DNA from: a virus
Taxonomy: Duplodnaviria > Caudoviricetes
IMG/VR virus record: IMGVR_UViG_3300020409_000022
Location: 1-56,226 of that record
Strand: one strand, 5' to 3'
DNA length: 56,226 bases
The position numbers and the translations under genes were made by a program. The notes beneath the pieces are model-generated. The model did not search any database. It was not told the origin of the DNA and saw only the letters and a list, made by a program, of their open reading frames with translations. Positions 16,676 through 29,614 of this stretch are shown here, piece by piece; position 1 is the stretch's first letter, and every line of letters begins with the position of its first letter.

Positions 16676-17614
16676 ATGGCAGAAACTTTTCTTACATTAA
16701 CCAATAGCGTATTAGCACGATTAAATGAAGTTGAACTAACTTCATCAAATTTTTCTAACGCTAGAGGTATACAAGTGCAAGCAAAAAATGCTGTCAATGA
16801 AGCAGTACGTTATATAAACCAAAAAGAATTTAGTTATCCTTTTAATCATGCTACTAATACTAGCACGTTGGTTCCTGGAACATTTAAATACAGTGTTCCT
16901 ACATCAACTAAACACATAGATTATAACACAGCAAGAATAGTAAAAAACACCGATTTAGGAGTAGGAGGCAACAGTTTAACACCTCTTACTTATAATCAAT
17001 ATATAGCCGATAATGTAGAACAAGAAGATGAAATAGATACAACTACATTAGATGGGACTTTAACAGATTCAGCCACGACTGTAACAGTGGCAAGCACATC
17101 AGGGTTCGATAGCTCTGGAACATTATTCATTGAAAATGAACAGATAACCTATACAGGAACAACTTCTACTACTTTTACAGGGGCAACTAGAGGTGCTAAT
17201 AGTACAACAGCAGCAGCTCACAGCAGTGGAACACAGGTAGCTCAGTTTAGTGGTGGAGGAATCCCCACACATATAATTAGAACTTTGGACAATAATTATA
17301 TTCTTTATCCTTTCCCAGATAAAGCGTACACTTTGAAGTTTGATTATTTCACTTTTCCAACTACAATGTCAGCACACGGAGATACTACAACAATACCAGA
17401 TAGGTTTGCACCAGTTATAGTGGATGGTGCTACATCTTATGTTTATCAGTACAGAGGTGAAATAGAGCAATATCAATTAAACTTTGCAAGATTTGAACAA
17501 GGTATAAAAAATATGCAGACTTTACTTGTTAATAAATATGAGTACGTAAGGTCTACAGTTGTCCTAAGACCAGCTACAATGGCTGGATATTTTAGCACAG
17601 AAACGACAACATAA
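16676..17614 (+). CDS. Head-tail adaptor / tail tubular protein A-like, with inserted beta domain
   Basis: FLTLTNSVLARLNE N-terminus, YPFPDKAY, IPDRF; Thr-rich insert. Confidence 0.75.
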   Translation: MAETFLTLTNSVLARLNEVELTSSNFSNARGIQVQAKNAVNEAVRYINQKEFSYPFNHATNTSTLVPGTFKYSVPTSTKHIDYNTARIVKNTDLGVGGNSLTPLTYNQYIADNVEQEDEIDTTTLDGTLTDSATTVTVASTSGFDSSGTLFIENEQITYTGTTSTTFTGATRGANSTTAAAHSSGTQVAQFSGGGIPTHIIRTLDNNYILYPFPDKAYTLKFDYFTFPTTMSAHGDTTTIPDRFAPVIVDGATSYVYQYRGEIEQYQLNFARFEQGIKNMQTLLVNKYEYVRSTVVLRPATMAGYFSTETTT

Positions 17615-19164
17615 TGCCAGATTTATCCAGAACACAACCAGTATCTTTTAACTGCGAGGGAGGACTGGTTTTAAATCGTTCTACGTTTATGATGCAACCA
17701 GGGGAAGCACTTGAGTTAGAAAACTTCGAGCCTGATATTGAGGGTGGTTACAGAAGAATAAATGGATTTAGTAAATACGTAACAGCAGTAGTTCCTCATA
17801 CTTCTGATACTTCAGAAAGAGTATTAATGGTTGCTACCTTTGCAAGTAAAGTTGTAGCAGCAAGAGGAACAAATATATTTACTGCAGATGCAGGAGGTTC
17901 TTCATGGACAACAGTAGATAGTGGAAGAACTAATGCAGGTAAATATAATTTTGAAAGATTTAACTTTGATGGTAACGATAAATTAATTGTTGCAGATGGT
18001 ACAAATGCACCAACAGTATTTAATACATCATTTAGTGCAACAGACGTAGATTCAGCAGGAACTGGCGAAGTTAGCACTGCAGTTACAGGTGCAAAATTTG
18101 TAACAGCATTTAAAGAACATATGTTCTACGCAGGTATGTCTGGCTCTAAACAAGAGATAATATTTAGTGTGCCTTTTGATGAAGATAACTTTCTTACAGC
18201 AAGTGGTGCAGGAAGTATTAAAGTTGATGATACTATAACTGGACTTAAAGTTTTCCGAGAAAATTTATTTATCTTTTGTGAAAACAGAATATTTAAACTG
18301 TCAGGAACATCAAGTAGTGATTTTGCTATAACTGCAGTAACAAGAGATATAGGCTGTATCAATGGAGATACAATCCAAGAATTTGCAGGTGACTTAATAT
18401 TCTTAGGTCCTGATGGATTAAGAACAGTTGCAGGTACTGCAAGAATTGGTGACGTTGAATTGGGTACTATAAGTTCTAACGTGCAGAGTTTATTTGATGA
18501 TAACTTAGATAGTGCGTCAGAATTTGAGTCAGTGGTTATACCTGATAAAACTCAATACAGAGTATTTTTTACAAAGGCTGCTCAAGCACAAGGCTCTACT
18601 CAAGGAGTTATATGTGTTTTGAAAGGCGAAAGATTTGAGTTTTCTAAAATGAAAGGCATAAAACCTGCTTCAACAGATACTTTCATAAGTGCAGGAAATG
18701 TAATAATTTTACATGGTGATTATGCCAATGGGTTTGTTTATAGGCAAGAGTCAGGTAATGACTTTGATGGCACAATAATAAGTGGTAAGTATAGAAGTCC
18801 TGACTTAACATTTGGTGATGCAGGTATACGTAAGCATATGCAACGTGTCATTGTAAACTTTGAACCTGAATCATCAATAGACGCAGATTTATTTTTAAGA
18901 TATGATTATGAATCTAGAGATGCTGTTCAACCCACAGCTTATGCGTTAGATTCAGAAGATGTTGCAGCGTTGTATGGAACATCTACATACGGAACAAGTT
19001 CTAGTTTAAAAGGGACTTATGGTGGAACGTCAAGACCTTTATTTAGACAATCAGTTGAGGGTTCAGGTTTTGCAGTTGCACTAAGAGTAAATGATGGTGG
19101 CACTACTGCACCATATTCTTTAAAAGGATTTCAACTAGAATATCAAACAGGAGCTAGAAGATAA
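17614..19164 (+). CDS. Tail nozzle / tubular protein B (stabilisation protein)
   Basis: Position after adaptor; GGL N-terminus; beta-propeller-like motifs DIGCI..DTIQE, LIFLGPDGLR. Confidence 0.8.
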   Translation: MPDLSRTQPVSFNCEGGLVLNRSTFMMQPGEALELENFEPDIEGGYRRINGFSKYVTAVVPHTSDTSERVLMVATFASKVVAARGTNIFTADAGGSSWTTVDSGRTNAGKYNFERFNFDGNDKLIVADGTNAPTVFNTSFSATDVDSAGTGEVSTAVTGAKFVTAFKEHMFYAGMSGSKQEIIFSVPFDEDNFLTASGAGSIKVDDTITGLKVFRENLFIFCENRIFKLSGTSSSDFAITAVTRDIGCINGDTIQEFAGDLIFLGPDGLRTVAGTARIGDVELGTISSNVQSLFDDNLDSASEFESVVIPDKTQYRVFFTKAAQAQGSTQGVICVLKGERFEFSKMKGIKPASTDTFISAGNVIILHGDYANGFVYRQESGNDFDGTIISGKYRSPDLTFGDAGIRKHMQRVIVNFEPESSIDADLFLRYDYESRDAVQPTAYALDSEDVAALYGTSTYGTSSSLKGTYGGTSRPLFRQSVEGSGFAVALRVNDGGTTAPYSLKGFQLEYQTGARR

Positions 19165-22100
19165 ATGGGTCAAACATACACTAGACAATCTTCCTACAGT
19201 GATGGAGACGTAATAACTGCAGCTCATACCAATGATGAGTTTAATCAGTTATTAGCAGCATTTCAAGCAAGTACAGGGCATACTCACGATGGCACAGCTA
19301 ACGAAGGTGGTCCTATTACCAAACTACTTGGTACTGCTATTACGATAGGTGATGGTACTGCAGGAACAGATATAGCAGTGACATTTGATGGTGAAACATC
19401 AGATGGTGTATTAACATGGAAAGAAGATGAGGATTATTTTGAATTTAGTGATGACATACTTATTGCTTCTACAGAAAAGTTACAATTTAGAGACACAGCA
19501 ATATACATCAATTCTAGTGCAGACGGACAACTAGATTTAGTAGCAGATACAGAAATACAAATTGCAGCTACTACAGTTGATTTAAATGGTAACTTAGATG
19601 TTTCAGGTTCTATTACTTTAGGTGGCACTGAAATTACATCTACTGCAGCAGAACTAAATATTCTAGATGGAGTTACTTCTACTGCATCAGAACTAAACAT
19701 ATTAGATGGAGTAACATCTACTACTGCAGAGTTGAATATTCTCGATGGAGTAACCTCAACTGCAACAGAATTAAATTTAGTTGATGGTTCATCTGCAGGT
19801 ACTATAGTAAATAGCAAAGCAGTTGTATATGGTTCTAGTGGCGAAGTAAATGCAACGACACTACAAATAGCAGGAACTTCTATTACTTCCACTGCAGCCG
19901 AACTTAATATTCTAGATGGAGTAACTGCCACTGCATCAGAGTTAAATATTTTAGATGGGGTGACTTCTACTGCATCAGAGTTAAATATACTTGATGGAGT
20001 AACTGCAACAACTGCAGAGTTAAACATTTTAGATGGTGTCACTTCAACTGCATCAGAGTTAAATATTTTAGATGGTGTTACTTCAACCACTGCAGAGCTA
20101 AATATACTTGATGGTGTAACTTCTACCACAGGTGAACTTAATTTACTTGATGGGTCAGCTAAATCAACTTCATCTATTACTATTGCTGACAGTGATGCCT
20201 TTATTATAATAGATGGTAATACAACCAAACAAATACCTGCTTCTGATTTAACAACATATTTAGCAGCAGGTGATATTACTGGTGTGACTGCAGGCGTAGG
20301 GCTTAGTGGAGGTGGTTCCTCAGGTGACGTAACAGTAACATTAGATTTATCAGAACTAAGTGATGTTACCCCTGTAAATGGAGATAAACTTGCTACGTTA
20401 GACTCTGATGGTTCAACAGAACAATTAACAACTGTGGCATCTCTTGCCACGCTATTTGCAGGTACAGGCTTATCTGCATCTAACTCTGTAATTAGTATTG
20501 ATGCAGCACAAACAGGTATAACTAGTTTACTTGCAACAGATATTAAAATTGGTGAAGATAACGAAACAAAAATAGACTTTGAGACTGCTAATGAAATACA
20601 TTTCTATGCAGCGAATGCAGAGCAAGTATTTGTTTCAGATGGAGTCTTTGGACCACAGACAGATAGTGATGTAGACTTAGGTACAACAGGTGTTAGATTT
20701 AAAGATGCTTACGTAGATTCTGTAACAGTTACAGGAGATGTTTCTGTAGGTGACGACCTTACAGTAGAAGGTGGTGTAATAGAATTAAAAAACACTGGGT
20801 CACAATCAGAACTTAGAATGTATTGTGAGTCTAGTAATGCACACTACGCTGCACTTCAAGCTCCTGCTCACAGTGCTTTTTCTGGTAACACTACACTAAC
20901 TTTACCTGCAACTACAGATACTATTGTAGGTAGAGCAACTACAGATACTCTCACAAATAAAACATTAACTAGTCCAAAGATAAATGAAAACGTAGCAGTT
21001 ACTGCAAGTGCAACAGAAATAAATCTTTTAGATGGTGTTACTGCAACAACCTCAGAATTAAATATACTTGACGGAGTTACATCCACAGCAGCAGAGTTGA
21101 ATTTAGTAGATGGTATAACTGCAGGTACAGTAGCTGCATCAAAAGCAGTTATAGCAGATTCAAACAAAGACGTAAGTGGTTTTAGAAATGTAAGTATGAC
21201 AGGTGACTTAACAGTTTCAGGTGATGCTATAGTTATGAATACAAACACTGCAGGTCACTTACTCATTGCAGATGGCACAGATTTTAACCCAAGAGCAGTA
21301 GGTGATTTATCAGAAATATCTACAGTTGCAAATGATGATGTGTTTTTAGCAGTAGATACTTCAGGTGGTGGTCTAAAGAAAATTACACGAAGCACTATTG
21401 TTTCAGGATTAGCAGTATCAGGCACAGGTTTAGATAATATAGTTGAAGACACTACACCTCAGTTAGGTGGTAATTTAGATGTAAACGGCAATAATATTAC
21501 AGGTTCTACACTGACGTTGGACTCTGCAGGAGACATCATACTTGATGCAGATGGTACAGATATAACTTTAAAAGATGGTGGAACAACTTTTGCTAATCTT
21601 AAAAACTCTAGTGGTGAGTTAGTAATTCAATCAGGTTCTACACCTACAACTGCTATGACATTTAGTGGTGCTAACGTAACTTTAGCAGGAAACTTAACTG
21701 TATCAGGAACAACAACTACAGTAAACTCTACTACTGTAAATTTAAATGACCACAATATTGTATTAGATAGTGGTAACAGTACAAGTGCAGTCGTAAATGG
21801 TGCAGGTATAACTCTTGAAGGTGGTAGTGGAGATGATGCTACATTTACATATAATACAACAGGTCCTAAGTTTGAATTAAAGTTAGGTTCTAGCCACGAA
21901 GATTTACAAGTAGACCAACTCATTGCAGCATCTTTAGATATATCAGGGAATGTGGATGTAGATGGAAAACTTGAAACAGATGAGCTATCTATAAATGGCA
22001 CTGACGTAACTGCTACTGCATCAGAGTTAAACATCTTAGATGGTGTCACTGCGACAGCATCAGAGCTTAATATTATGGATGGGGTTACTGCGACAACAGC

Positions 22101-23601
22101 AGAACTAAACATTCTTGATGGAGTTACTGCTAGTGCTACAGATATCAACTTAATAGATGGCATTACGAATGGAACTGTAATAGCAAGTAAAGCTATTATA
22201 ACTGATTCTAATAAAGACATATCAGGTGGTAGAAATATTACAATCTCAGGTGAGCTTGACGCAGCTACCCTAGACATTAGTGGTAATGCAGATATAGATG
22301 GTACACTTGAAGCAGATGCAATCACAGTGGGTGGCACTGCATTAAATACTGTTATAGCAGGTGTTACTGTATCCAACGCTACAACTGCAGCAGTAGCAAC
22401 AACAGTTACAATAACAGATAATGAAAGTACAAACGAAGACAACGCAGTTGTATTTACGGCAGGTGGTGACGTAGATGGTGGTAATTTAGGTTTAGAGAGT
22501 GATGGTAACTTAACTTACAATCCAAGCACAGGAAGATTAACTGCTACACAGTTAGCAGGTACATTACAAACTGCTGCACAGACAAACATTACATCACTAG
22601 GAACACTTACAACATTAACAGTAGATGACATTACTATTAATGGTAGCACTATATCTGACAGTGGAGATTTTACACTAGATATCAATGGTGACATAAATTT
22701 TGATGCTAATGGTGGTGATTTTAAATTTAAAGATAACGGAACAGAAATACTAAGGATTACCAACTCATCTAGTGATGTAATTATTAGACCTGTTGCCGAT
22801 GCTAAAGATATAATTTTTCAACAGAGAGATGGCACTGAAGTAGCAAGAGTTGAAGACAATGGTACATTTAATGTTGTTACAGACAAACTTGCTATAAACG
22901 GAACAGCAATTACATCCACTGCTGCAGAGTTAAACAAACTAGATGGGGTAACTTCTACAACTGCTGAATTAAATATCTTAGATGGGGTAACCTCTACTGC
23001 TGCAGAACTCAACATTCTCGATGGTGTCACATCTACCACTGCAGAATTAAATATATTAGATGGAGTAACCTCTACTACTGCAGAGTTAAATTTACTTGAT
23101 GGGTCAACTGCAGGAACAGTTGTAGCATCAAAAGCAGTTGTAGTAGACTCAAATAAAGATATAGCAAGTTTTAGAAATGTTACATTGACAGGCGAGCTTG
23201 ATGCAGCTACATTAGATATATCAGGTAATGCAGATATAGATGGAACACTTGAGACAGATGCGTTGTCCATTAATGGTACAACTGTTACTTCTACTGCTGC
23301 AGAACTAAACATCCTTGACGGAGTAACTTCTACTGCATCCGAATTAAATATTCTTGATGGTGTTACAGCGACAACTGCAGAACTAAACATACTTGATGGT
23401 GTGACATCTACTGCAGCGGAATTAAACATCATGGATGGTAATACATCTGCTTCTTCTACAACATTAGTTGATGCAGACAGGGTAGTAACAAACGACAATG
23501 GAACAATGAAACAGGTTGCATTATCAGATGTTAAAACATACTTGAGTAGTGCAGGCTTTTCAAGTGAAGACCCAACTGCATTAGCTATTGCATTGGGTTA
23601 A
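19165..23601 (+). CDS. Long tail fibre with 13-aa repeats (1478 aa)
   Basis: N-terminal anchor YTRQ...EFNQL..AF...GHTHDG; ELNILDG repeats; C-terminal ALAIALG. Confidence 0.88.
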   Translation: MGQTYTRQSSYSDGDVITAAHTNDEFNQLLAAFQASTGHTHDGTANEGGPITKLLGTAITIGDGTAGTDIAVTFDGETSDGVLTWKEDEDYFEFSDDILIASTEKLQFRDTAIYINSSADGQLDLVADTEIQIAATTVDLNGNLDVSGSITLGGTEITSTAAELNILDGVTSTASELNILDGVTSTTAELNILDGVTSTATELNLVDGSSAGTIVNSKAVVYGSSGEVNATTLQIAGTSITSTAAELNILDGVTATASELNILDGVTSTASELNILDGVTATTAELNILDGVTSTASELNILDGVTSTTAELNILDGVTSTTGELNLLDGSAKSTSSITIADSDAFIIIDGNTTKQIPASDLTTYLAAGDITGVTAGVGLSGGGSSGDVTVTLDLSELSDVTPVNGDKLATLDSDGSTEQLTTVASLATLFAGTGLSASNSVISIDAAQTGITSLLATDIKIGEDNETKIDFETANEIHFYAANAEQVFVSDGVFGPQTDSDVDLGTTGVRFKDAYVDSVTVTGDVSVGDDLTVEGGVIELKNTGSQSELRMYCESSNAHYAALQAPAHSAFSGNTTLTLPATTDTIVGRATTDTLTNKTLTSPKINENVAVTASATEINLLDGVTATTSELNILDGVTSTAAELNLVDGITAGTVAASKAVIADSNKDVSGFRNVSMTGDLTVSGDAIVMNTNTAGHLLIADGTDFNPRAVGDLSEISTVANDDVFLAVDTSGGGLKKITRSTIVSGLAVSGTGLDNIVEDTTPQLGGNLDVNGNNITGSTLTLDSAGDIILDADGTDITLKDGGTTFANLKNSSGELVIQSGSTPTTAMTFSGANVTLAGNLTVSGTTTTVNSTTVNLNDHNIVLDSGNSTSAVVNGAGITLEGGSGDDATFTYNTTGPKFELKLGSSHEDLQVDQLIAASLDISGNVDVDGKLETDELSINGTDVTATASELNILDGVTATASELNIMDGVTATTAELNILDGVTASATDINLIDGITNGTVIASKAIITDSNKDISGGRNITISGELDAATLDISGNADIDGTLEADAITVGGTALNTVIAGVTVSNATTAAVATTVTITDNESTNEDNAVVFTAGGDVDGGNLGLESDGNLTYNPSTGRLTATQLAGTLQTAAQTNITSLGTLTTLTVDDITINGSTISDSGDFTLDINGDINFDANGGDFKFKDNGTEILRITNSSSDVIIRPVADAKDIIFQQRDGTEVARVEDNGTFNVVTDKLAINGTAITSTAAELNKLDGVTSTTAELNILDGVTSTAAELNILDGVTSTTAELNILDGVTSTTAELNLLDGSTAGTVVASKAVVVDSNKDIASFRNVTLTGELDAATLDISGNADIDGTLETDALSINGTTVTSTAAELNILDGVTSTASELNILDGVTATTAELNILDGVTSTAAELNIMDGNTSASSTTLVDADRVVTNDNGTMKQVALSDVKTYLSSAGFSSEDPTALAIALG
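19633..23439 (+). repeat. 27 copies of a 39-bp / 13-aa repeat (V/I)T(S/A)TxxELNILDG in six blocks
   Basis: Counted from the translation: blocks of 4, 7, 3, 4, 5 and 4 units; synonymous codons diverged. Confidence 0.85.
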
Positions 23602-23617
23602 AAAATAGGATACAATT

Positions 23618-23965
23618 ATGGCAAATACATTTAAATTAGTAACTAAAGCAGGTGTAACAAGTGCTGATGTCATTTACACAGTAGCAAGTTCTACAACAAC
23701 AGTTGTTTTAGGAATTATGCTCGGTAATACAACAACAAGTCAAGTTACTGCAACAGTTACAATAGAATCAGATACAAGCAATAGGTCAGGTGCAAACAAT
23801 GAAGCAAATCAAACTGTGGAGTTAGTTACAAACGCACCTATACCTGCAGGTTCATCTCTTGAATTATTAGCAGGTAATAAAGTTGTAATGGAAACTACTG
23901 ATGTATTAAAACTAACTGCATCAGGTGCAACTGACATAGCAGTATCAATCATGGAGATTACATAA
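23618..23965 (+). CDS. Fibre-associated small beta protein (MANTFK-type)
   Basis: Follows the fibre; IPAGSSLELL..NKVV motif; ends SIMEIT. Confidence 0.75.
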   Translation: MANTFKLVTKAGVTSADVIYTVASSTTTVVLGIMLGNTTTSQVTATVTIESDTSNRSGANNEANQTVELVTNAPIPAGSSLELLAGNKVVMETTDVLKLTASGATDIAVSIMEIT

Positions 23966-24414
23966 TGGCAATTATAGGTAATCCACTTCCTGCTAACTTT
24001 CAAGCTCCACCCTCAGTGGTGAGGTTTAATGGTGATGGAAGTGATACTACATTTGCTTTAGGAAGAACAATAGGTACTGTACAAGATATACTTGTTTCTG
24101 TAGATGGTGTTGTTCAAGATAGTTCTGCTTATACTGTGCCTGATGGTTCTACTCTTACTTTTACTGCAGCACCTTCAAGTGGTACAAATAATATTTTTGT
24201 ATACTTTCTAGGATTAGCAGGTGAATCTATAACACCTACTGCTGAATTTAAAGGTAACTTTAAAGCAGGTGGTTTATTTAGAACTAACTCACAAACGTTG
24301 GATTCTAATATAACAATAACCTCTTCTGAAAATGCAAATGTTACAGGTCCTCTTACAATATCAAGTGGTGTAACATTGACAGTTGAAAGTGGTGGAAGGT
24401 TAGTAACATTATGA
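23965..24414 (+). CDS. Fibre adaptor-like protein A
   Basis: MAIIGNP N-terminus; FNGDGS.TTF.L...VDGVVQ...LTFTAAP domain; C-terminal NSQT..ITI..ENA..GP shared with 27229..27687. Confidence 0.75.
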   Translation: MAIIGNPLPANFQAPPSVVRFNGDGSDTTFALGRTIGTVQDILVSVDGVVQDSSAYTVPDGSTLTFTAAPSSGTNNIFVYFLGLAGESITPTAEFKGNFKAGGLFRTNSQTLDSNITITSSENANVTGPLTISSGVTLTVESGGRLVTL

Positions 24415-24818
24415 GTACAATTAAAACAGACACCTTAACTGGTACAAGTACAGCAGGTTCTATTTCTGTTACAGGCGAAGGAAATAGTACAACAACTAAT
24501 CTGCAACAAGGTCTTATTAAAGCATTTATTCATCATACAGGTGATAGTCCTACAACTAATGATTCATTTAATGTTGCTTCTTTAACTGATAATGATACTG
24601 GAGATTATACTTATACTTGGACTAATGCTTTTGGTAATACTTTTCCTAGTGTTAGTGGTATGTCTACCGAAGATGGCACAATAGGTTATGTAACCTTGTA
24701 TTTTGATAGGTCTTGGACTAAGTCAGGAGCTAATTTAAGAGTTCAAGGTATAGACCAAGGAGATAGTTATGATGATGGAGCATACTCCACTGTAATGGTG
24801 GCAGGAGATTTAGCATGA
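24411..24818 (+). CDS. GDLA-family adhesin-like paralog 1
   Basis: KAF...SFNVASLTDNDTGDY...GDLA. Confidence 0.78.
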   Translation: MSTIKTDTLTGTSTAGSISVTGEGNSTTTNLQQGLIKAFIHHTGDSPTTNDSFNVASLTDNDTGDYTYTWTNAFGNTFPSVSGMSTEDGTIGYVTLYFDRSWTKSGANLRVQGIDQGDSYDDGAYSTVMVAGDLA

Positions 24819-25246
24819 GTACCATAAAAACAAACACCTTAACAGGTACAACTTCAGCAGGTAGCATTCTTGTTACAGGAGAGGGTGGTGTTCAAACCAC
24901 AAACTTACAACAAGGATTATGTAAGGCTTGGACTTTTTTTGATTCAACCCCAACAACACCTGACCATACAGATAGTTTTAATGCTACTACATTAACTGAC
25001 ATTGGAACTGGTAATCAAAAGTTTGATTTTATAAATCCTATGGGCAATGCTAATTTTGCTTTTGGTGGTGCTGCAGTAGTTGATGAAACTACATTTGCTG
25101 TGTTAAGTGGCTCAGAAATAGCAGGAACTCATGCTCGTTCTACTTCAAATACTGGTGGATTTTTTACTTCAAATACTGCATCTGTAAATAGTGGTGCAAA
25201 TGCAAATAGTATATCAATTACAATACACGGAGATTTAGCAGAATGA
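24815..25246 (+). CDS. GDLA-family paralog 2
   Basis: KAW...SFNATTLTDIGTG...GDLAE. Confidence 0.78.
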   Translation: MSTIKTNTLTGTTSAGSILVTGEGGVQTTNLQQGLCKAWTFFDSTPTTPDHTDSFNATTLTDIGTGNQKFDFINPMGNANFAFGGAAVVDETTFAVLSGSEIAGTHARSTSNTGGFFTSNTASVNSGANANSISITIHGDLAE

Positions 25247-25662
25247 CAAACGGAACAATAGCATTTGATACATTAACAACATCTGATTCAAAGAACACTG
25301 GTACAGAGAAGTCTATTGATACGAGTTATATTTTTAATGGTTCAGCTAAATCATGGCTTAACTATGCTCAAAATGGTGACACAATAAACGATAGTTTTAA
25401 CATATCATCAGTATCTGATGAAAGCACAAGTGAATTTAAACCTGTCATGACAAATGCCATGGCGAATATTAATTATTCTGTTTATGGTGCTTATGCACCT
25501 AATTATGGTGTTGCTTCTAGTACAGGATATTCTATGCACCAGGATGGAACATCTGAGAGAGCACCAACAACAGTAGATTATTTTGCAAGAACTGTAGGAG
25601 CTAATGGAAGTGGTTTTGATTCTAAGTATAATTTAATTTCATTAGATGGAGACGTAGCATGA
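25243..25662 (+). CDS. GDLA-family paralog 3
   Basis: KSW...SFNISSVSD...GDVA. Confidence 0.78.
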   Translation: MTNGTIAFDTLTTSDSKNTGTEKSIDTSYIFNGSAKSWLNYAQNGDTINDSFNISSVSDESTSEFKPVMTNAMANINYSVYGAYAPNYGVASSTGYSMHQDGTSERAPTTVDYFARTVGANGSGFDSKYNLISLDGDVA

Positions 25663-26144
25663 CAATAAAAACACCAGAGTTTCAAGGCACACATTTATGG
25701 GATAGATTGTGTTGGGCAAAAGAAAACTTAGAAGGTAAGCAATCAGACTATCGTATTGTATGGCAAGACCCTGATAAACCTGAAGAGTGTTCTAAGGTAA
25801 CTGTGCCTGACCCTAATTGGATGGCTTGTGCGTTACAAGGTGGCATACTACCACCTGTAGAAGTATATTGGGCATTAGCAGAAGATGAAGCAAAGCCTGA
25901 CTTTAAGAAGCATACAAGAGGTTATTTGCTACACAATACTAAACCTATTGATGCAATGACAGAAGAACAAGCAATAGAATATTTAATTATGAAAGATATA
26001 CCACAAAGAGTGTGGAGAGAATATCAAAAAGCTAATCAACCTAGATTAGTGATTTGTAAAAAGAATCAGCTTCCAAGTACAAGAGAGTGGCGAAATGCTT
26101 GGAAGATTGATGAGAATATTAATGCCACTCATAAGGCAGCATAA
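25659..26144 (+). CDS. Fibre-associated hypothetical protein (possible chaperone)
   Basis: ATGA-coupled; MTEEQAIEYLIMKDIP...LPS.REWRNAW. Confidence 0.72.
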   Translation: MTIKTPEFQGTHLWDRLCWAKENLEGKQSDYRIVWQDPDKPEECSKVTVPDPNWMACALQGGILPPVEVYWALAEDEAKPDFKKHTRGYLLHNTKPIDAMTEEQAIEYLIMKDIPQRVWREYQKANQPRLVICKKNQLPSTREWRNAWKIDENINATHKAA

Positions 26145-26155
26145 AGGAGAACACA

Positions 26156-26527
26156 ATGCCAAAAACATTTATAATGGATAGAAATGGTAAAACAGTTGAT
26201 GCTTCAACTGTAACCAAGCCATCTGATAGACACTTTAGAGAAGCATGGACACTAAGTGGTGATGTTATCTCTGAAGACATGACCGAAGCTAAAAAAATCT
26301 TTCAAGATAAAATTAGAGAAGTCAGATTACCACTACTAGAAGCAGAAGATGTAGTGTACATGAAAGCATTAGAAGCAGATGATGCAAGTGCAAAGACTGC
26401 AAGTGTAGCTAAAAAGAAAGCACTTAGAGATGCACCTGCAGCCAAAGCTATATCTGATGCAGACACTATTGCAAAGCTCAAGGCAGCTTGGGATACATCT
26501 GTATTAGGTGACAGTCCATACGCATAA
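26156..26527 (+). CDS. Tail fibre assembly chaperone-like protein
   Basis: AAGGAG SD; KIREVRLPLL..EDV.YMKALE...KKALRDAP pattern. Confidence 0.65.
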   Translation: MPKTFIMDRNGKTVDASTVTKPSDRHFREAWTLSGDVISEDMTEAKKIFQDKIREVRLPLLEAEDVVYMKALEADDASAKTASVAKKKALRDAPAAKAISDADTIAKLKAAWDTSVLGDSPYA

Positions 26528-26537
26528 GGAATAGGTT

Positions 26538-27008
26538 ATGGCTTTAACTAAAGTACAAGCTGATGGGATTAATTTAGCTGACACCTTTGCTTTTACTGGC
26601 ACTGTTAGTGGAGCAGGTAAGGTTTTACAAGTTTTAGGTTCTTCATTAGCATCACAAGTAACAACAGCATCAACAAGTTTTGTAACAACAGGTGTATCGG
26701 TTGATATTACACCTTCTTCATCTTCTAACAAAGTTGCTCTTTTATTTGGATTACCTACTTATGCAGCAGTAGGGTCACATTTTATTGGAACACTTTATAG
26801 AGATAGTACAAACCTTGGTAACTCAAGCTGGGGTATGGGATTTGGTTCAAATTCTATTGCTGTAAATGTAAATGGTGCTTTTCTTGATTCACCAAATACA
26901 ACAAGCCAAGTTACATATGCAATTTATTGTAGGTCTTATTCTGGCACAGGGTACGCTATGATTAATAATGCTTTGGCTTCACTAACTGTTATGGAGATAT
27001 CAGCGTAA
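26538..27008 (+). CDS. MEI-family adhesin-like paralog 1
   Basis: GKVLQV...ITPSSSSNKV...LDSPNTTSQVTY...MEISA. Confidence 0.78.
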   Translation: MALTKVQADGINLADTFAFTGTVSGAGKVLQVLGSSLASQVTTASTSFVTTGVSVDITPSSSSNKVALLFGLPTYAAVGSHFIGTLYRDSTNLGNSSWGMGFGSNSIAVNVNGAFLDSPNTTSQVTYAIYCRSYSGTGYAMINNALASLTVMEISA

Positions 27009-27229
27009 TGGAAGAAATTAAAGAATTTGAAAAGTTAAGTAAAGCTATACAAACTTTAAAGTCAAATTGTGAGTTTGTCTTTAGTGGAACAATAATAGAC
27101 GAAGTAAACTTTAATAAAATTAAATGGGTTACTGGTGTAGAAGAAAATGGAATGGCAAAAACTACAACCACTTGTCCACATAGTGAAATAACTTGGACTA
27201 AAGTAAAAGCAGAAATGGACAAATTATAA
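27008..27229 (+). CDS. Small XkdW-like fibre-associated protein
   Basis: AIQTLK.NCEF...IKW...TWTKVKAE; TAATG coupling. Confidence 0.6.
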   Translation: MEEIKEFEKLSKAIQTLKSNCEFVFSGTIIDEVNFNKIKWVTGVEENGMAKTTTTCPHSEITWTKVKAEMDKL

Positions 27230-27687
27230 TGGGATATATAGGAAAATCACCCTCTAATGGAGTAAGAAGTAGGTTTGTTTACCAAGCGACTGCAGGTCAA
27301 ACTTCTTTTAGTGGTAGTGATGCAAATTCTTTAACATTAGCATACACTGATAGCTTGTATATGGATGTGTACCAAAATGGTGTTCTCCTCAAAACAGGTA
27401 CAGATTATGCAGCTACAAGTGGCACAAGTGTCGTGTTAGTGACGGCAGCAAGTGCAAATGATATTGTAGAAATGATTGTTTATGATGTCTTCTCAGTTCA
27501 AGATACTTATACTAAAACTGAGTCAGACACACGTTATCCATTCAAAGGTAATAACAGTATTATAAGATTAAATGGGCAGACTATAAGTGCAGACATAACT
27601 ATAGACTCAGATGAGAATGGAGTCAGTGCAGGTCCTATTACACAGAACGCCACAGTCACTGTTAATGGTTATTGGAGTATCGTATGA
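27229..27687 (+). CDS. Fibre adaptor-like protein B
   Basis: MGYIGKSP; ATAGQTSF...DVYQNGVLL...DY domain; C-terminus paralogous to 23965..24414. Confidence 0.75.
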   Translation: MGYIGKSPSNGVRSRFVYQATAGQTSFSGSDANSLTLAYTDSLYMDVYQNGVLLKTGTDYAATSGTSVVLVTAASANDIVEMIVYDVFSVQDTYTKTESDTRYPFKGNNSIIRLNGQTISADITIDSDENGVSAGPITQNATVTVNGYWSIV

Positions 27688-28088
27688 CAAGTCAGTTAAA
27701 TGTAGATACCATAAAAGGCAAATCAACAGCAGGTTCTATTTCTATTCAAGGTGAAGGAAGCAAAACTACTAATCTGCAACAAGGGTTGTTAAAGGCATGG
27801 TCTCATACTACAACACATAACACATTAGCAGATTCTTTAAATATTAGTTCTGTTACGGATAATGGAGGTGGGCAGTCCAACGACACTTTTACCAATCCTT
27901 TTGCAAATACGACTTATTGTATTAATTATGGTATACGAGATGGTGGTGGCACTAATGATGACAGACTTATAATGTCAGGTTCAAGTGAGTTGTTTTCAAC
28001 ATCACAGTATGGGGTTTATTGTGTTAGCACTACAACACTAAATGATGCTGACTTTTTATTTTTACAATACGCAGGAGACTTAGCATAA
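27684..28088 (+). CDS. GDLA-family paralog 4
   Basis: ATGA-coupled start at 27684; TNLQQGLLKAW...SLNISSVTDNG...GDLA. Confidence 0.78.
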   Translation: MTSQLNVDTIKGKSTAGSISIQGEGSKTTNLQQGLLKAWSHTTTHNTLADSLNISSVTDNGGGQSNDTFTNPFANTTYCINYGIRDGGGTNDDRLIMSGSSELFSTSQYGVYCVSTTTLNDADFLFLQYAGDLA

Positions 28089-28465
28089 TGGCAAGTATAT
28101 TAAAAGTAGATAGCATAGGAAAGACATCTGGTAGTACACAAGATACTATGGCTGGGTTAGCAAAGATTTTAGCAAGTCTTGATACAACAGGAACAGCAGA
28201 AATTGATAACTCTTTTAATCTTGCTAGTATAACAGACAATGGAACTGGAGATTTTACATTAGATTTTACAAATGATTTGAGTAGTGCTTTTTCTTTTTGT
28301 TCTTTTATGTGTGCTGCTAATGCAAGTTTTGATGATGAAGGTTCGGCTCATGTAATATCAAGAGCAACAGGAACACATAGATTTGGTGTAACTGATATAC
28401 ATAATGCAGCAGACGCTTTTGATTATGACCCTGTAATGTTTACAATACACGGAGACTTAGCATAA
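28088..28465 (+). CDS. GDLA-family paralog 5
   Basis: SFNLASITDNGTGDF...HGDLA. Confidence 0.78.
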   Translation: MASILKVDSIGKTSGSTQDTMAGLAKILASLDTTGTAEIDNSFNLASITDNGTGDFTLDFTNDLSSAFSFCSFMCAANASFDDEGSAHVISRATGTHRFGVTDIHNAADAFDYDPVMFTIHGDLA

Positions 28466-28857
28466 TGGCTAGTGAATTAAGAGTAGATACATTAAAAGAT
28501 GCGAGTGGTAATAATAGTGTTGCTACGAGCACAGTAGCAAGTGGGAGTGCTAAAGCATGGTGTTTGTTTGAAGGTGATGGTACTGCTGCAATAACAGATT
28601 CTTTTAATTTTGGTTCTATTACAGACAACGGAACTGGTGATTATTCTTTTGCAATAACTAATAACATGAGCAATGGAAATTACTGTGTTCCTTGCGGAAC
28701 TGTGAAAGACACAGGTGGACAGACTACAAACATAGCAGTTGACCACGATAATCCTCCAAGTGCAAGTGTATTAAGAATGTTATGTGTAGATGATTATACA
28801 CAAGCACAAAGAGATGGTGAGTTGCAATCCTTTAATGTTTTAGGAGACTTAGCATGA
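28465..28857 (+). CDS. GDLA-family paralog 6
   Basis: KAW...SFNFGSITDNGTGDY...GDLA. Confidence 0.78.
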   Translation: MASELRVDTLKDASGNNSVATSTVASGSAKAWCLFEGDGTAAITDSFNFGSITDNGTGDYSFAITNNMSNGNYCVPCGTVKDTGGQTTNIAVDHDNPPSASVLRMLCVDDYTQAQRDGELQSFNVLGDLA

Positions 28858-29381
28858 GTAAAGCAGCAGATTTAGCAAGATTTATAGGTGGTGGTTTTTC
28901 AGGTAAAGTTTTACAAGTTGTAAGCACGAATAAAACTGATAAAACAGATAGTGCAGATTTTGATACAAGTTTTGAAAATGTAACTGGCTTAACTGTAAAT
29001 ATTACTCCATCATCTACCTCTAGTAAAATATATGTTATCGCCACTTTACAAATTTCAGTTGCAGGCTATCACCTTACTTTTAGAATTGCTAGAGGGGGAA
29101 GCACTATAGTAGAGCCAAGTGCAGCAGGAAACAGAATGCTAGGTATGACACATATTTATGGTAGCTCTTCTTTTAATGACCATTACAATATTGAAAGTAA
29201 AGTAATGCAAGTTTTAGATAGTCCAAGTTCTACATCAGAGCTAACTTATAGTGTGCAAGGAAAAAATGCAAACAATGCAAACACTACTGGTTTAGTTGTT
29301 AATTCAACAAATAATGATGTAGATGCTGCTTACAATTCAAGAGTTATTTCAACTATTACAGCTATGGAGATTGCTGGATAA
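28854..29381 (+). CDS. MEI-family adhesin-like paralog 2
   Basis: GKVLQV...ITPSSTSSKI...LDSPSSTSELTY...MEIAG. Confidence 0.78.
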   Translation: MSKAADLARFIGGGFSGKVLQVVSTNKTDKTDSADFDTSFENVTGLTVNITPSSTSSKIYVIATLQISVAGYHLTFRIARGGSTIVEPSAAGNRMLGMTHIYGSSSFNDHYNIESKVMQVLDSPSSTSELTYSVQGKNANNANTTGLVVNSTNNDVDAAYNSRVISTITAMEIAG

Positions 29382-29614
29382 TGGAAATAGACGCAATGTT
29401 ATTTTGGAACATTATCTTAACTATGGTCGTTATACCATTTGGTTGGGCATTTAACAAGATGTTCCAAGAGGTAAAACGTCTACAGATATTATTAAATAAG
29501 ACACGAGAAGAGTATGCACGTAAAGATGATGTAAAAGAAGATATGCATGACATCATGGATGCAATGAAAAGATTAGAAGATAAGCTAGACAAGATATTGA
29601 TGGGAGCTAGATAG
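29381..29614 (+). CDS. Small membrane protein with coiled-coil tail
   Basis: N-terminal transmembrane helix, then heptads ending RLEDKLDKIL. Confidence 0.75.
   Translation: MEIDAMLFWNIILTMVVIPFGWAFNKMFQEVKRLQILLNKTREEYARKDDVKEDMHDIMDAMKRLEDKLDKILMGAR

Follow-up and report, generated by a model that had tools for sequence, protein, structure and literature searches.

We consider it rather probable that the array of small genes behind the long tail fibre gene of this phage encodes a hub-and-plug host-recognition apparatus made of many small proteins. The conserved hubs would be adaptors A and B, a paralogous pair of short fibre stubs, and each would serve four separately encoded receptor-binding proteins, in which a slot-specific N-terminal tag would act as docking peptide for the hypervariable head behind it. 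The heads would be lectin-like beta-sandwiches in six proteins (G1 to G6) and of the MEI type in the fourth slots; they would most likely be homotrimers docked side by side on the hub, giving a branched structure, and the conserved proteins c161 and c123 would serve the unit in an accessory or assembly role. The sequence-only reading had proposed that many small subunits make up a modular, plug-in system for receptor binding, and the conserved triplets of G genes, fixed slot tags and swapped heads described below argue, at the level of sequence, in favour of this.

The window, i.e. the whole stretch of 56,226 nucleotides that was analysed, is a 98% complete HMO-2011-type podophage. All genes of the array locus are on the + strand, and their order and coordinates, as first proposed, matched on re-reading of the open reading frames. 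The long tail fibre (19165..23601, 1478 aa), mentioned for context only, contains many 14-aa ..ELNILDGVTS.. repeats, matches phrog_29288 (E 7e-26) and shares its N-terminus (blastp) with HMO-2011 gp43 and the fibres of roseophages CRP-1, CRP-13 and CRP-738. Its conserved companion, the MANTFK protein (23618..23965, 115 aa), matches phrog_1276 and phrog_26609 (E 7e-8), is 40% identical to HMO-2011 gp42, a 'putative structural protein', and has a homologue after the fibre in CRP-13. There follow adaptor A (23965..24414, 149 aa), the heads G1 (24411..24818, 135 aa), G2 (24815..25246, 143 aa) and G3 (25243..25662, 139 aa) in slots A1 to A3, c161 (25659..26144), c123 (26156..26527) and MEI1 (26538..27008), the fourth-slot head of cassette A. 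Beyond x73 (27008..27229, 73 aa), cassette B comprises adaptor B (27229..27687, 152 aa), G4 (27684..28088, 134 aa), G5 (28088..28465, 125 aa) and G6 (28465..28857, 130 aa) in slots B1 to B3, and MEI2 (28854..29381, 175 aa) in slot B4, and is devoid of c161 and c123 genes of its own. The start of G4 was taken as the ATG, the TTG at 27672 given by the ORF lister being further upstream.

Twelve of the 14 junctions between MANTFK and MEI2 overlap by 1 or 4 nt, and the genes of the array are translationally coupled. The codons for the terminal GDLA of a G gene (as in G1; GDVA in G3) constitute the Shine-Dalgarno site for the next gene and show codon bias; they are followed by the overlapping stop and start and by the conserved tag. 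Conserved junctions of this kind bracket each variable head.

The six G proteins are mutually related, with blastp E-values from 2e-21 to 1e-3 save for the G3–G5 pair (0.02), and a profile search retrieved exactly six G genes in the whole record (G1 at E 4.5e-37). The similarity of the G, MEI and adaptor copies is thus far above chance by blastp, in agreement with the paralogy claimed at the outset, and the motifs on which that claim drew are visible in the alignments: KAW, SFN..S.TD.GTG and GDLA in the G proteins, MxxIG and N.QT..ITI..EN...GP in the adaptors. Each G protein consists of an N-terminal arm of 20–35 aa, the length of which varies by slot, and a small beta-sandwich. All match the 'tail fiber' family phrog_11355 (G1 E 1e-8, G2 1e-12, G3 2e-12, G4 5.5e-12, G5 7e-10, G6 1e-17). 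The AF2 model of G6, the member that was modelled (pLDDT 90.5, pTM 0.79), lies closest to domains at the distal end of spikes and fibres from phages (phiAB6 Z 7.8, Pam1 Z 7.5, AP22 gp53 Z 6.7, LKA1 gp49 Z 5.9); Helix pomatia agglutinin (Z 5.6) and the foot of R-pyocin (Z 5.2) are likewise similar to it, Z-scores of 5–8 being 'middling' on the comparison tool's own scale.

These folds and the PHROG 'tail fiber' matches of the G proteins, adaptors and MEI2 speak against a reading in which the products are soluble lectin-like or accessory proteins (decoys, host-surface or superinfection agents) encoded in a late operon. The very small size of the proteins would suit such a role, as would the resemblance of the c161 and c123 translations to cytoplasmic globular or helical proteins. 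However, the same G domain terminates long fibres, the small genes are tightly coupled in their place between the fibre stubs and the structural genes, and the tags would hardly be conserved if they had nothing to dock on. We therefore regard a function outside the virion as highly improbable.

The R-pyocin fibre, a structural neighbour of G6, has stacked knobs, and long fibres can terminate in 5–9 tandem G-like beads, one of which opens with the same type of tag; some of these single chains possess a fibre-type N-terminus (P0241, P0243, P0246). This favours a serial arrangement, in which an adaptor trimer, three G trimers and a terminal head would form one thin fibre per cassette, each tag gripping the preceding bead in a non-covalent version of the tandem-G fibres. 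The fixed order and number of genes and the position of the largest and most varied heads at the end would be consistent with beads on a string. Yet all beads are hypervariable, so that conserved surface to hold the next tag is scarce, and a locus may have as few as 1 or as many as 5 G genes. For these reasons, and in view of the heads found in HMO-2011 (see below), we find this arrangement unlikely.

Three G genes in a row follow adaptor A in 32 of 37 loci and directly follow adaptor B in 60 of the 62 loci that extend for four or more genes beyond it; among 52 more distant, diverse contigs, 40 have three immediately 5′ of c161, the other 12 having 1, 2, 4 or 5. The unit of adaptor C-domain, three G genes, c161 and c123, the modal arrangement of these diverse contigs (40 of 52), is also present in cyanophages Mel-JY33 and Nsp-JY18, and the core unit thus reaches phages of Microcystis and Nostoc. 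The pattern of one triplet per adaptor, the loss of which the sequence-only reading had named as grounds for its own refutation, is accordingly retained in close and distant loci and in both cyanophages. That three is the modal number over such large evolutionary distances may hint at a single mixed trimer of pseudo-threefold symmetry on each adaptor, in which the cassette's three G chains would associate like chains A, B and C of complement C1q. This heterotrimer had been offered as an option from the start, and it would be in keeping with the three slots being distinct old lineages and with the existence of eight tagless proteins of 337–356 aa made up of three G domains in tandem and nothing else. 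The deviating counts in 12 of the 52 loci argue against it, as do the unequal arm lengths between slots and the occurrence of G heads in single-gene slots.

The hub-and-plug scheme draws on what is conserved and what is exchanged at each position. Across 160 related contigs, the loci of which are metagenomic and not mutually independent, median identity to the positional counterparts was 66% for adaptor A, 86% for adaptor B, 74% for c161 and 78% for c123, as against 34–45% for the heads in G slots and 30–34% in MEI slots. Every gene position nevertheless retains its own N-terminal tag (here MTSQLNVDTI in G4, MASILKVD in G5, MASELRVDTL in G6, MALTKV..G.. in MEI1 and MSKAADLA in MEI2), regardless of whether the head is of the G, MEI, C1q, gp28 or an unclassified type. 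Within slots, identity amounts to 52–84% over residues 1–12 versus 11–58% over residues 13–24, and the best match from another locus often lay in the same slot (A1 14/25, A2 24/37, A3 30/41, B1 49/62, B2 43/56, B3 39/53).

HMO-2011 has all eight slots and tags, but the heads differ in two of them: A2 holds an MEI-type head and B2 a Pfam C1q head (E 4e-10), each with a PF16778 chaperone gene after it. In loci L134, L135 and L139, the C1q head has been exchanged for an unclassified one behind a single tag. These non-G heads of HMO-2011 argue against a serial fibre; C1q-type heads have both chain ends at the base, so that an in-line C1q bead in the middle slot B2 is unlikely. A mixed trimer would likewise have to tolerate an MEI, C1q or unclassified head with its own chaperone in one slot, as seen in these four genomes and in L061. 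In addition, sequence comparison shows single G genes to be exchanged independently of their neighbours: B1 is at least 80% identical with B2 below 60% in 2 pairs, the reverse holds in 3 and both are conserved in 13, the corresponding counts for B2/B3 by the same criteria being 3, 9 and 13. Taken with the variable G count and the single-gene slots, this makes the heterotrimer quite improbable.

The two MEI proteins are 33% identical (blastp E 2e-9), and MEI2 matches the C-terminal part of the 'tail fiber' family phrog_6942 (positions 541–707 of 708, E 7e-16). The MALTKV tag is common to 55 distinct proteins at the MEI1 position, behind which are found G, MEI, unknown 165–190-aa heads or 240–368-aa proteins with a coiled-coil end. 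An MSKAAELA-type tag is common to 49 distinct proteins at the MEI2 position, where the heads in 60 loci are gp28-type (28), G (15), MEI (11) or unclassified (6). Hence the view of MEI as the fourth member of each cassette holds for this genome but not for its relatives, in which the slot is filled by any of these four kinds of head.

c161 always lies after the third G gene and is present in 67 of 67 loci; it is 75% identical to HMO gp36 and has homologues in Mel-JY33 (E 6e-44) and Nsp-JY18 (E 2e-43), and no name for it was found in Pfam, PHROG or the Atlas. The helical c123, paired with c161, matches phrog_20196 (E 1.5e-30), is 66% identical to HMO gp35 and also has homologues in the two cyanophages (E 9e-24 and 1e-25, respectively). 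Both had been called chaperone-like; Pfam matches neither, and c123 bears only a weak likeness (hhalign 18%) to a chaperone profile built from the PF16778-type proteins that occupy the x73 position in relatives. c123 is possibly an assembly factor. The place of x73 itself is often taken in relatives by a PF16778 tail-assembly chaperone gene (the 'MEI gp38' order), but x73 has neither a Pfam match, with no family at E≤0.1, nor a PHROG match, and scores E 1.3 against the same profile, so that its description as XkdW-like was not borne out.

Both adaptors comprise a T7-gp17-N-like beta-sandwich and a C-domain of roughly 55 aa with the motif N.QT..ITI..EN...GP..T..G.TLTV..GG.LV. They are 33% identical across their C-halves (blastp E 5e-6) and align over 134 columns with an hhalign probability of 95%. 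Adaptor A is 66% identical to HMO gp41 and matches the first 159 of 373 positions of phrog_18673 'tail fiber' (E 5e-32); adaptor B is 79% identical to HMO gp33 and gave 2461 metagenomic clusters at E≤1e-3, the top 120 all being at least 85% identical. Pfam matches of the two adaptors are sub-threshold or absent (adaptor A to PF03906 at E 1.6e-4, below the cut-off), while the adaptor A homologues P0028, P0029, P0086, P0107 and P0113 carry precomputed PF03906 matches, and in 1021 longer proteins the adaptor A N-domain is fused to heads such as C1q and S74. The N-domain, modelled confidently by AF2 for adaptor B, resembles fibre N-termini from podophage tail complexes of solved structure (HRP29 E 3.5e-4, LME-1 Z 8.0, P-SCSP1u Z 6.7). 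Its residues 10–87 share the fold of the T7 gp17 N-terminal domain (PF03906; Foldseek probability 0.96–0.99 to 7ey9, 7ey7 and 7boz; VIA Z 4.9–5.1), although, unlike gp17, the adaptors lack shaft and tip. The C-domain, on which the tags are predicted to dock, came out poorly as an AF2 monomer (pLDDT 54–73, without secondary structure), so that its role as hub is suggested by adjacency alone. A symmetric trimeric hub by itself does not explain separate sites for three or four different tags. In CRP-1, CRP-13 and CRP-738, an adaptor-B-like domain sits within the long fibre, near its C-end, and the small-gene array was not found in these roseophages; the domain thus does not serve as a tail anchor in every case, nor is the array universal in the group.

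The array is kin to known branched receptor-binding systems, as a variant of them. In the TP901-1 BppU/BppL 'tripod', one adaptor trimer bears three receptor-binding trimers, as proposed here, but these are identical products of one gene, whereas the array uses three distinct genes with distinct tags. CBA120 (TSP1–4), G7C (gp63.1/gp66) and K1-5/SP6 carry several different trimeric receptor-binding proteins on one attachment point via N-terminal domains. The adaptor N-domain shares its fold with the N-terminal structure of TSP4 (superposition on residues 187–250: Z 7.5, rmsd 1.6, 62 residues), but those proteins are large enzymatic spikes with folded docking modules, whereas the docking element of the array appears to be a peptide of 12–30 residues. 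In the branched dual systems of Klebsiella podophages KP32, K11 and KP34, as described in the accessible portions of the reports, the first receptor-binding protein combines an anchor with a T4gp10-like branching domain and the second has a conserved N-terminal docking peptide (PMC6872550, PMC13352976). The array would share with them a docking domain on a tail-anchored protein, separate receptor-binding proteins with a conserved N-terminal peptide and variable specificity modules traded between phages. In contrast to what those portions describe, its hubs are headless, of about 150 aa and two in number, with three or four plug-ins each; the plug-ins, of 125–175 aa, are single small sandwiches without depolymerase; c161 and c123 belong to the unit; and docking is a prediction.

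Small C1q-domain receptor-binding proteins have also been described in 'metaviromic islands' of marine podophages (Mizuno et al. 2014, PMC3909814). Like the array proteins, these lie beside the tail fibre and combine an N-terminus that recruits metagenome reads well with a hypervariable head. The available part of that paper deals with single C1q genes in pelagiphages and contains no description of a G family, of slot tags, of a cassette of adaptor plus three, or of c161/c123. The cassette is old and widespread and would be a way, so far undescribed, to build a many-headed adhesin. This marine phage belongs to the very abundant HMO-2011 kind, and, if the proposed scheme is correct, its virion could display up to eight different specificities.

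A scan of IMG/VR with adaptor B, one of the two proposed hub proteins of about 150 residues, yielded at least 600 candidate stretches; 587 of those listed were confirmed, and profiles from the window and from phage HMO-2011 were used to annotate the 80 best loci, which were retained. As only 5 of 82 sources span the region from MANTFK, the protein following the long fibre, to the gp25 homologue, counts were made per cassette, and they refer to metagenomic relatives rather than independent samples. Three G genes (the small paralogs ending in GDLA) lie 3′ of adaptor A in 32 of 37 complete cassettes, the remainder reading G G G G (three cases), G ? G (one case) and, in HMO-2011, G MEI gp38 G. Behind adaptor B, G G G opens the gene order in 60 of the 62 loci that have four or more genes downstream. 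The pattern of one triplet per adaptor, on which the sequence-only reading had staked its proposal of a modular array, is thus conserved. The genes that follow are more diverse: the fourth gene after adaptor B is of the gp28 type in 28 loci, a G in 15, a MEI gene (the head family of the fourth slot in the window) in 11 and of unknown type in 6, and the interval between the accessory gene c123 and adaptor B is occupied by one further variable head, which among 72 loci is a G in 20, a MEI in about 18 and of unknown type in about 31. Median identities of the window proteins to their positional counterparts are 66% for adaptor A, 86% for adaptor B, 74% for the accessory protein c161 and 78% for c123, against 34–45% for the G slots and 30–34% for the MEI slots. 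The best 80 loci contain 280 distinct G sequences, 140 of which are left after a 50%-identity filter.

Each gene position keeps its own conserved N-terminus regardless of the type of head. The consensus tags are MSTLkaDTIq, MS..ktntlTG and MA.g.ia.dtl for the three triplet slots of cassette A (A1–A3), MTSqLNVDTI, MAS.LKVD and MASeLRVNTL for those of cassette B (B1–B3), and MALTkv...G and MsKAAeLA for the fourth slots of A and B, respectively; when residues 1–12 of the slot consensus are contrasted with residues 13–24, a short conserved peptide is seen to precede a variable module. The MALTKV tag is found on G and MEI heads, on several unknown proteins of 165–190 residues and on proteins of 240–368 residues with a coiled-coil end, and MSKAAELA on gp28-type, G, MEI and other heads. 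Three loci (L028, L042 and L058) even encode a hybrid in which the first ~32 residues of MEI1 precede a G head. Despite its apparently broken triplet, HMO-2011 shares all eight tags, in unchanged order: a MEI-type head occupies slot A2 (gp39) and a Pfam C1q head occupies slot B2 (gp31), and a gene for a PF16778 tail-assembly chaperone follows each of them. The best match from another locus belongs to the same slot in 56–79% of cases, and the slots are therefore old lineages. In L063 and L071, the A1 tag of cassette A is followed by tags of the B2, B3 and B4 types, which suggests, at the level of sequence, that tags, and hence sockets, may be exchanged between the two cassettes by recombination.

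The C-terminal signatures after which the head families were named can also be read at the nucleotide level. Five G genes of the window end in GDLA (24804–24818, 25232–25246, 28074–28091, 28451–28468 and 28843–28857), as do G genes of loci L002–L081. Among 253 G genes with this ending, the glycine codon is GGA in 246 and the aspartate codon GAC in 206, compared with 26% and 27%, respectively, elsewhere in the same genes; the alanine codon is GCA in 239, and the ATG of the next gene overlaps the stop codon in 251. Owing to this strong codon bias and to the overlap, the C-terminus is dual-coded: its codons are nearly always GGA GAY YTA GCA followed by TAATG or ATGA, and the resulting GGAGAY..GCA-TAATG/ATGA is a Shine–Dalgarno site at the right distance from the overlapping start of the next gene. 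A Shine–Dalgarno-like core is present in the last 16 nt of G genes in 380/393 cases, of adaptor B in 81/81, of MANTFK in 25/32 and of MEI genes in 19/31, and of adaptor A, c161 and c123 in 0/38, 1/68 and 0/72, respectively. The MEI ending (ATG GAG AT.) contains the same GGAG, and the MEI and MANTFK endings (ATGGAGAT) share it with the GDLA junction. Given this core and the codon bias, the GDLA and MEI signatures are largely coupling signals. A role of GDLA as a docking motif was dropped, since the codon bias places much of its conservation at the RNA level. Fused tandem forms of G keep only the 'GD'. In the window, overlaps of either 1 nt or 4 nt are present at 12 of the 14 gene junctions between MANTFK and MEI2, indicating a single translationally coupled operon.

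The record of 56,226 bases looks complete (CheckV completeness 98%), and its nearest isolate is Puniceispirillum (SAR116) phage HMO-2011, with 72% nucleotide identity across 28% of the region and the same gene order from the coat protein through the tail genes. Immediately 5′ of the long fibre, the gene at 17614–19164 (+) matches a PHROG named 'amidase', a name that also appears in the RefSeq record of HMO-2011. Its counterpart there, gp44, is listed by Hardies et al. (PMC4819975) as a tubular tail B homologue; on the strength of this entry, the database name is probably misleading and the tail of the window phage is a T7-like podophage tail. The long fibre itself (19165–23601, +; 1478 aa) consists mostly of 14-residue ..ELNILDGVTS.. 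repeats in several blocks, and its length in relatives spans widely, from 593 to 828 residues. Long ORFs on the opposite strand (19434–20450, 21627–22442 and 22818–23498) look like by-products of the repeats. The fifteen genes that had been read from the sequence were all recovered on the plus strand, without change of position (array genes, 23618–29381). Their proposed family relationships also hold: the six GDLA proteins, G1–G6, are mutual paralogs (blastp E 2e-21 to 1e-3 in 14 of 15 pairs) and the only G genes of the genome, MEI1 and MEI2 are related (E 2e-9), and so are adaptors A and B (hhalign 95%). The 'XkdW-like' label given to x73, the 73-residue product encoded before adaptor B, finds no support: no Pfam family was found at E ≤ 0.1, and comparison with a profile of 23 gp38/gp30-like proteins, which bears on kinship with PF16778 (Phage_tail_APC) or XkdW, gave E 1.3. 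Behind the last head, a 77-residue protein (29381–29614, +), which is hydrophobic in an N-terminal segment and ends in a helical tail, has weak PHROG matches, including phrog_462 'lipoprotein' (E 3e-5), and recurs at the same place in relatives; judging from these features, it may be a lysis or membrane protein and not a part of the array.

The G heads belong to a very large family. All six match phrog_11355 'tail fiber protein' (E 1.2e-8, 1.4e-12, 2.3e-12, 5.5e-12, 6.9e-10 and 1.2e-17 for G1–G6), and, in a set of 1.84 billion representatives, the G profile recovers 30,202 clusters (50% identity) at E ≤ 1e-3. The model of G6 (138-row alignment, pLDDT 90.5, pTM 0.79) has an N-terminal arm followed, from residue 28, by an all-beta sandwich. 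The model is structurally closest to distal domains of phage spikes and fibres (phiAB6, Pam1, AP22 gp53, LKA1 gp49, K64-1 S2-4 and the R-pyocin foot) and to Helix pomatia agglutinin, all with Z 5–7.8; these scores are middling, although the theme of the predicted neighbours is consistent. Foldseek found no match to the G6 model at E ≤ 0.001. The fold of G is not called C1q-like here, TNF/C1q chains reaching only Z 3.7–4.0 against the G6 model (VIA). MEI2 aligns with the C-terminal 167 of the 708 positions of a PHROG tail-fibre family and has no named relatives in the Atlas. Neither MEI protein matches Pfam C1q (PF00386) and 22 MEI proteins gave an hhalign probability of 0.1% against C1q heads; by contrast, HMO-2011 gp31 is a Pfam C1q protein at E 4e-10. 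In hhalign comparisons, no relation was seen between MEI and C1q or G, between MANTFK and MEI or G, or between the adaptors and G (probability at most 3% in each case), and C1q against G gave 8.7%.

For adaptor A, the similarity to a PHROG tail-fibre family of 373 positions covers positions 1–159 (E 5e-32); with 21.8 bits (E 1.6e-4), the protein falls below the gathering cut-off of 25.2 for PF03906, the N-terminal domain of the T7 tail fibre, which the Pfam search did not detect in adaptor B. When the PDB was searched by sequence with either adaptor, or with the profiles of G and of the adaptors, only chance matches such as antibody light chains came back. Adaptor B forms 2,461 clusters at 90% identity, and the best 120 relatives of its search are all at least 85% identical, which makes that search too uniform for modelling. 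An AlphaFold model based on a 93-row alignment (pLDDT 72) gave a confident beta-sandwich for residues 10–87 and no usable model for the C-terminal third. The sandwich resembles the fibre N-termini of the HRP29 tail (8es4_F, E 3.5e-4), LME-1 (9efk_AE, E 7e-4; Z 8.0) and P-SCSP1u (Z 6.7), as well as T7 gp17 in 7ey9 (chains a/b/c; E about 1e-2, probability 0.99) and 7boz (Z 4.9). In the model, the N-domain of adaptor B has the gp17 N-terminal fold of solved tail complexes, the scores being middling. It also resembles N-terminal domains of CBA120 TSP4, which we take to be gp10-like (Z 7.5, rmsd 1.6, and Z 6.5). In 1021 longer relatives, the N-domain is followed by a shaft and C1q, S74 chaperone or other modules, so that the adaptors can be described as headless fibre stubs. 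The C-domain, of ~55 residues, also occurs alone: a 56-residue 'mini-adaptor' starting with MALSRIGKGIG (L131, L143, L152, L156 and L166) precedes a C1q head, three or four G genes, c161, c123 and a conserved 251-residue protein. As the element that always adjoins heads, the C-domain is, by adjacency, the likely socket for them.

The two accessory genes c161 and c123 (25659–26527; L086 and L088) are kept from marine alphaproteobacterial phages to freshwater cyanophages. Neither has named relatives; for c161 the comparison took in Pfam, PHROGs and the Atlas. A short motif, PS.R.[FW]R.AW, is common to the last part of c161 and the first part of c123 (hhalign E 9e-4 over 18 columns). G-like genes are also present in unrelated isolates. 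Microcystis phage Mel-JY33 and Nostoc phage Nsp-JY18 encode a 422-residue fibre with an adaptor-like end (E 9e-14 and 2e-15), followed by exactly three G genes, homologues of c161 (E 6e-44 and 2e-43) and c123 (E 9e-24 and 1e-25), and lysis genes; in the freshwater T7-like genome MW202867, a 284-residue 'T7-like tail fiber' ending in the adaptor C-domain precedes three G genes. A further scan, seeded with the c161 protein of the cyanophages, produced 436 candidates; 422 were confirmed and 80 were kept. In the 52 loci with both an adaptor match and c161, the number of G genes directly 5′ of c161 is three in 40, four in 7, two in 3, and one and five in a single locus each; heads of all kinds between adaptor and c161 number three in 28 loci, four in 19 loci, five in 4 loci and one in a single locus.

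Taken together, the comparative evidence supports the plug-in interpretation of the sequence-only reading; the virion location, docking site and geometry of the array are putative. That reading had also considered a heterotrimeric arrangement. A mixed G1–G2–G3 trimer would place the three paralogs of a triplet in one knob; this is unlikely, since one of the three slots may be occupied by a head from a different family that brings its own chaperone, loci differ in how many G genes they have, single G genes are swapped while their neighbours stay, G heads are also used in single-gene slots, and arm lengths are unequal between slots. Alternatively, the heads may form a serial stack of beads. Among the best 150 G-profile matches, 22 have more than one G stretch, 8 of these having exactly three tandem G domains in 337–356 residues, with linkers of ~14 residues and no N-terminal tag (P0245, P0247, P0249, P0250, P0254, P0259, P0262 and P0264); these could be single-chain pseudo-trimers or three stacked knobs. 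Several other multi-G proteins are long fibres with 5–9 G-like beads. The occurrence of tandem beads in single chains makes a stack physically plausible, but it fits poorly with a C1q head in the middle slot and with beads that have no conserved surface. The most likely geometry is a branched one, in which homotrimeric heads would all dock through their tags on the conserved hub, so that conserved parts meet conserved parts, although this would not by itself account for different sockets on a symmetric trimer. A complex prediction for three copies of adaptor B with G5, G6 and G4 as partner gave ipSAE values of 0.15 and 0.16, against a threshold of 0.32, and weighs neither in favour of binding nor against it.

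In the model, the adaptor N-domain has a fold that speaks for tail attachment of the T7 kind. The roseophages CRP-1, CRP-13 and CRP-738, which are of the HMO-2011 type and have no small-gene array, contain an adaptor-B-like domain near the C-terminal end of the long fibre (residues 622–739 of 1080, 567–657 of 668 and 598–690 of 787; genes at L082 7129–10371, L083 7303–9309 and L084 7210–9573), whose N-terminus is common with that of the window's long fibre. This fusion joins long fibre and adaptor in one protein. Since the domain is internal to these fibres, its role may differ from fibre-to-tail attachment at the adaptor–nozzle junction, and the array may, in line with the earlier idea, be plugged into the 'headless' long fibre.

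Branched receptor-binding complexes, such as those of CBA120, G7C and K1-5, are the functionally closest systems. In the Klebsiella KP32-type system, according to two accounts (PMC6872550, PMC13352976), an anchor, a branching domain and a docking peptide are combined. The short conserved N-terminal peptide of the window's heads is comparable, and the adaptor N-domain, with its likeness to TSP4, may correspond to the T4gp10-like branching domain of the KP32-type primary protein. Marine 'metaviromic islands', according to another account (PMC3909814), contain small C1q proteins whose N-terminus is conserved and whose head is hypervariable. A literature search covering main texts turned up no account of the G family, of the slot tags, of the cassette of an adaptor plus three heads, or of c161/c123; 'tail fiber' appears 0 times in the main text of the ISME 2022 survey of HMO-2011-type phages, and GenBank records label the array genes only 'tail fiber protein' or 'hypothetical'. 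The array is a variation on known branched systems within a very abundant phage group.

The 60-nt junctions are 62–82% identical between distinct sequences, and 13–33% of junction pairs have in common an exact run of at least 20 nt; as a sequence pattern, this would suit exchange of head cassettes by recombination, without proving it. One may go further and speculate, although we consider this doubtful, that the array is an ancient natural 'cassette-exchange' system for host range, with a conserved hub, fixed addressed sockets and swappable heads. Each hypervariable head gene would then sit between conserved nucleotide junctions, flanked 5′ by the GGAGAY-YTA-GCA-TAATG/ATGA coupling site and the tag codons and 3′ by the next junction. 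These junctions would double as translational coupling sites and short homology arms, through which single heads, whatever their fold, could pass between co-infecting phages from one socket to another and even from one cassette to the other; c161 and c123 would serve as dedicated loaders. Should this be true, the ocean's most abundant podophages would display up to eight independent specificities, reshuffled one by one. If the plug-in reading is true, its tag of 12–30 residues and domain of ~100 residues would offer a very compact scaffold for studies of adhesin docking, much of the hypervariable 'island' of HMO-2011-type phages would be an ordered set of addressed sockets, and there would be a concrete handle with which to predict and test the host range of uncultured marine and freshwater phages.
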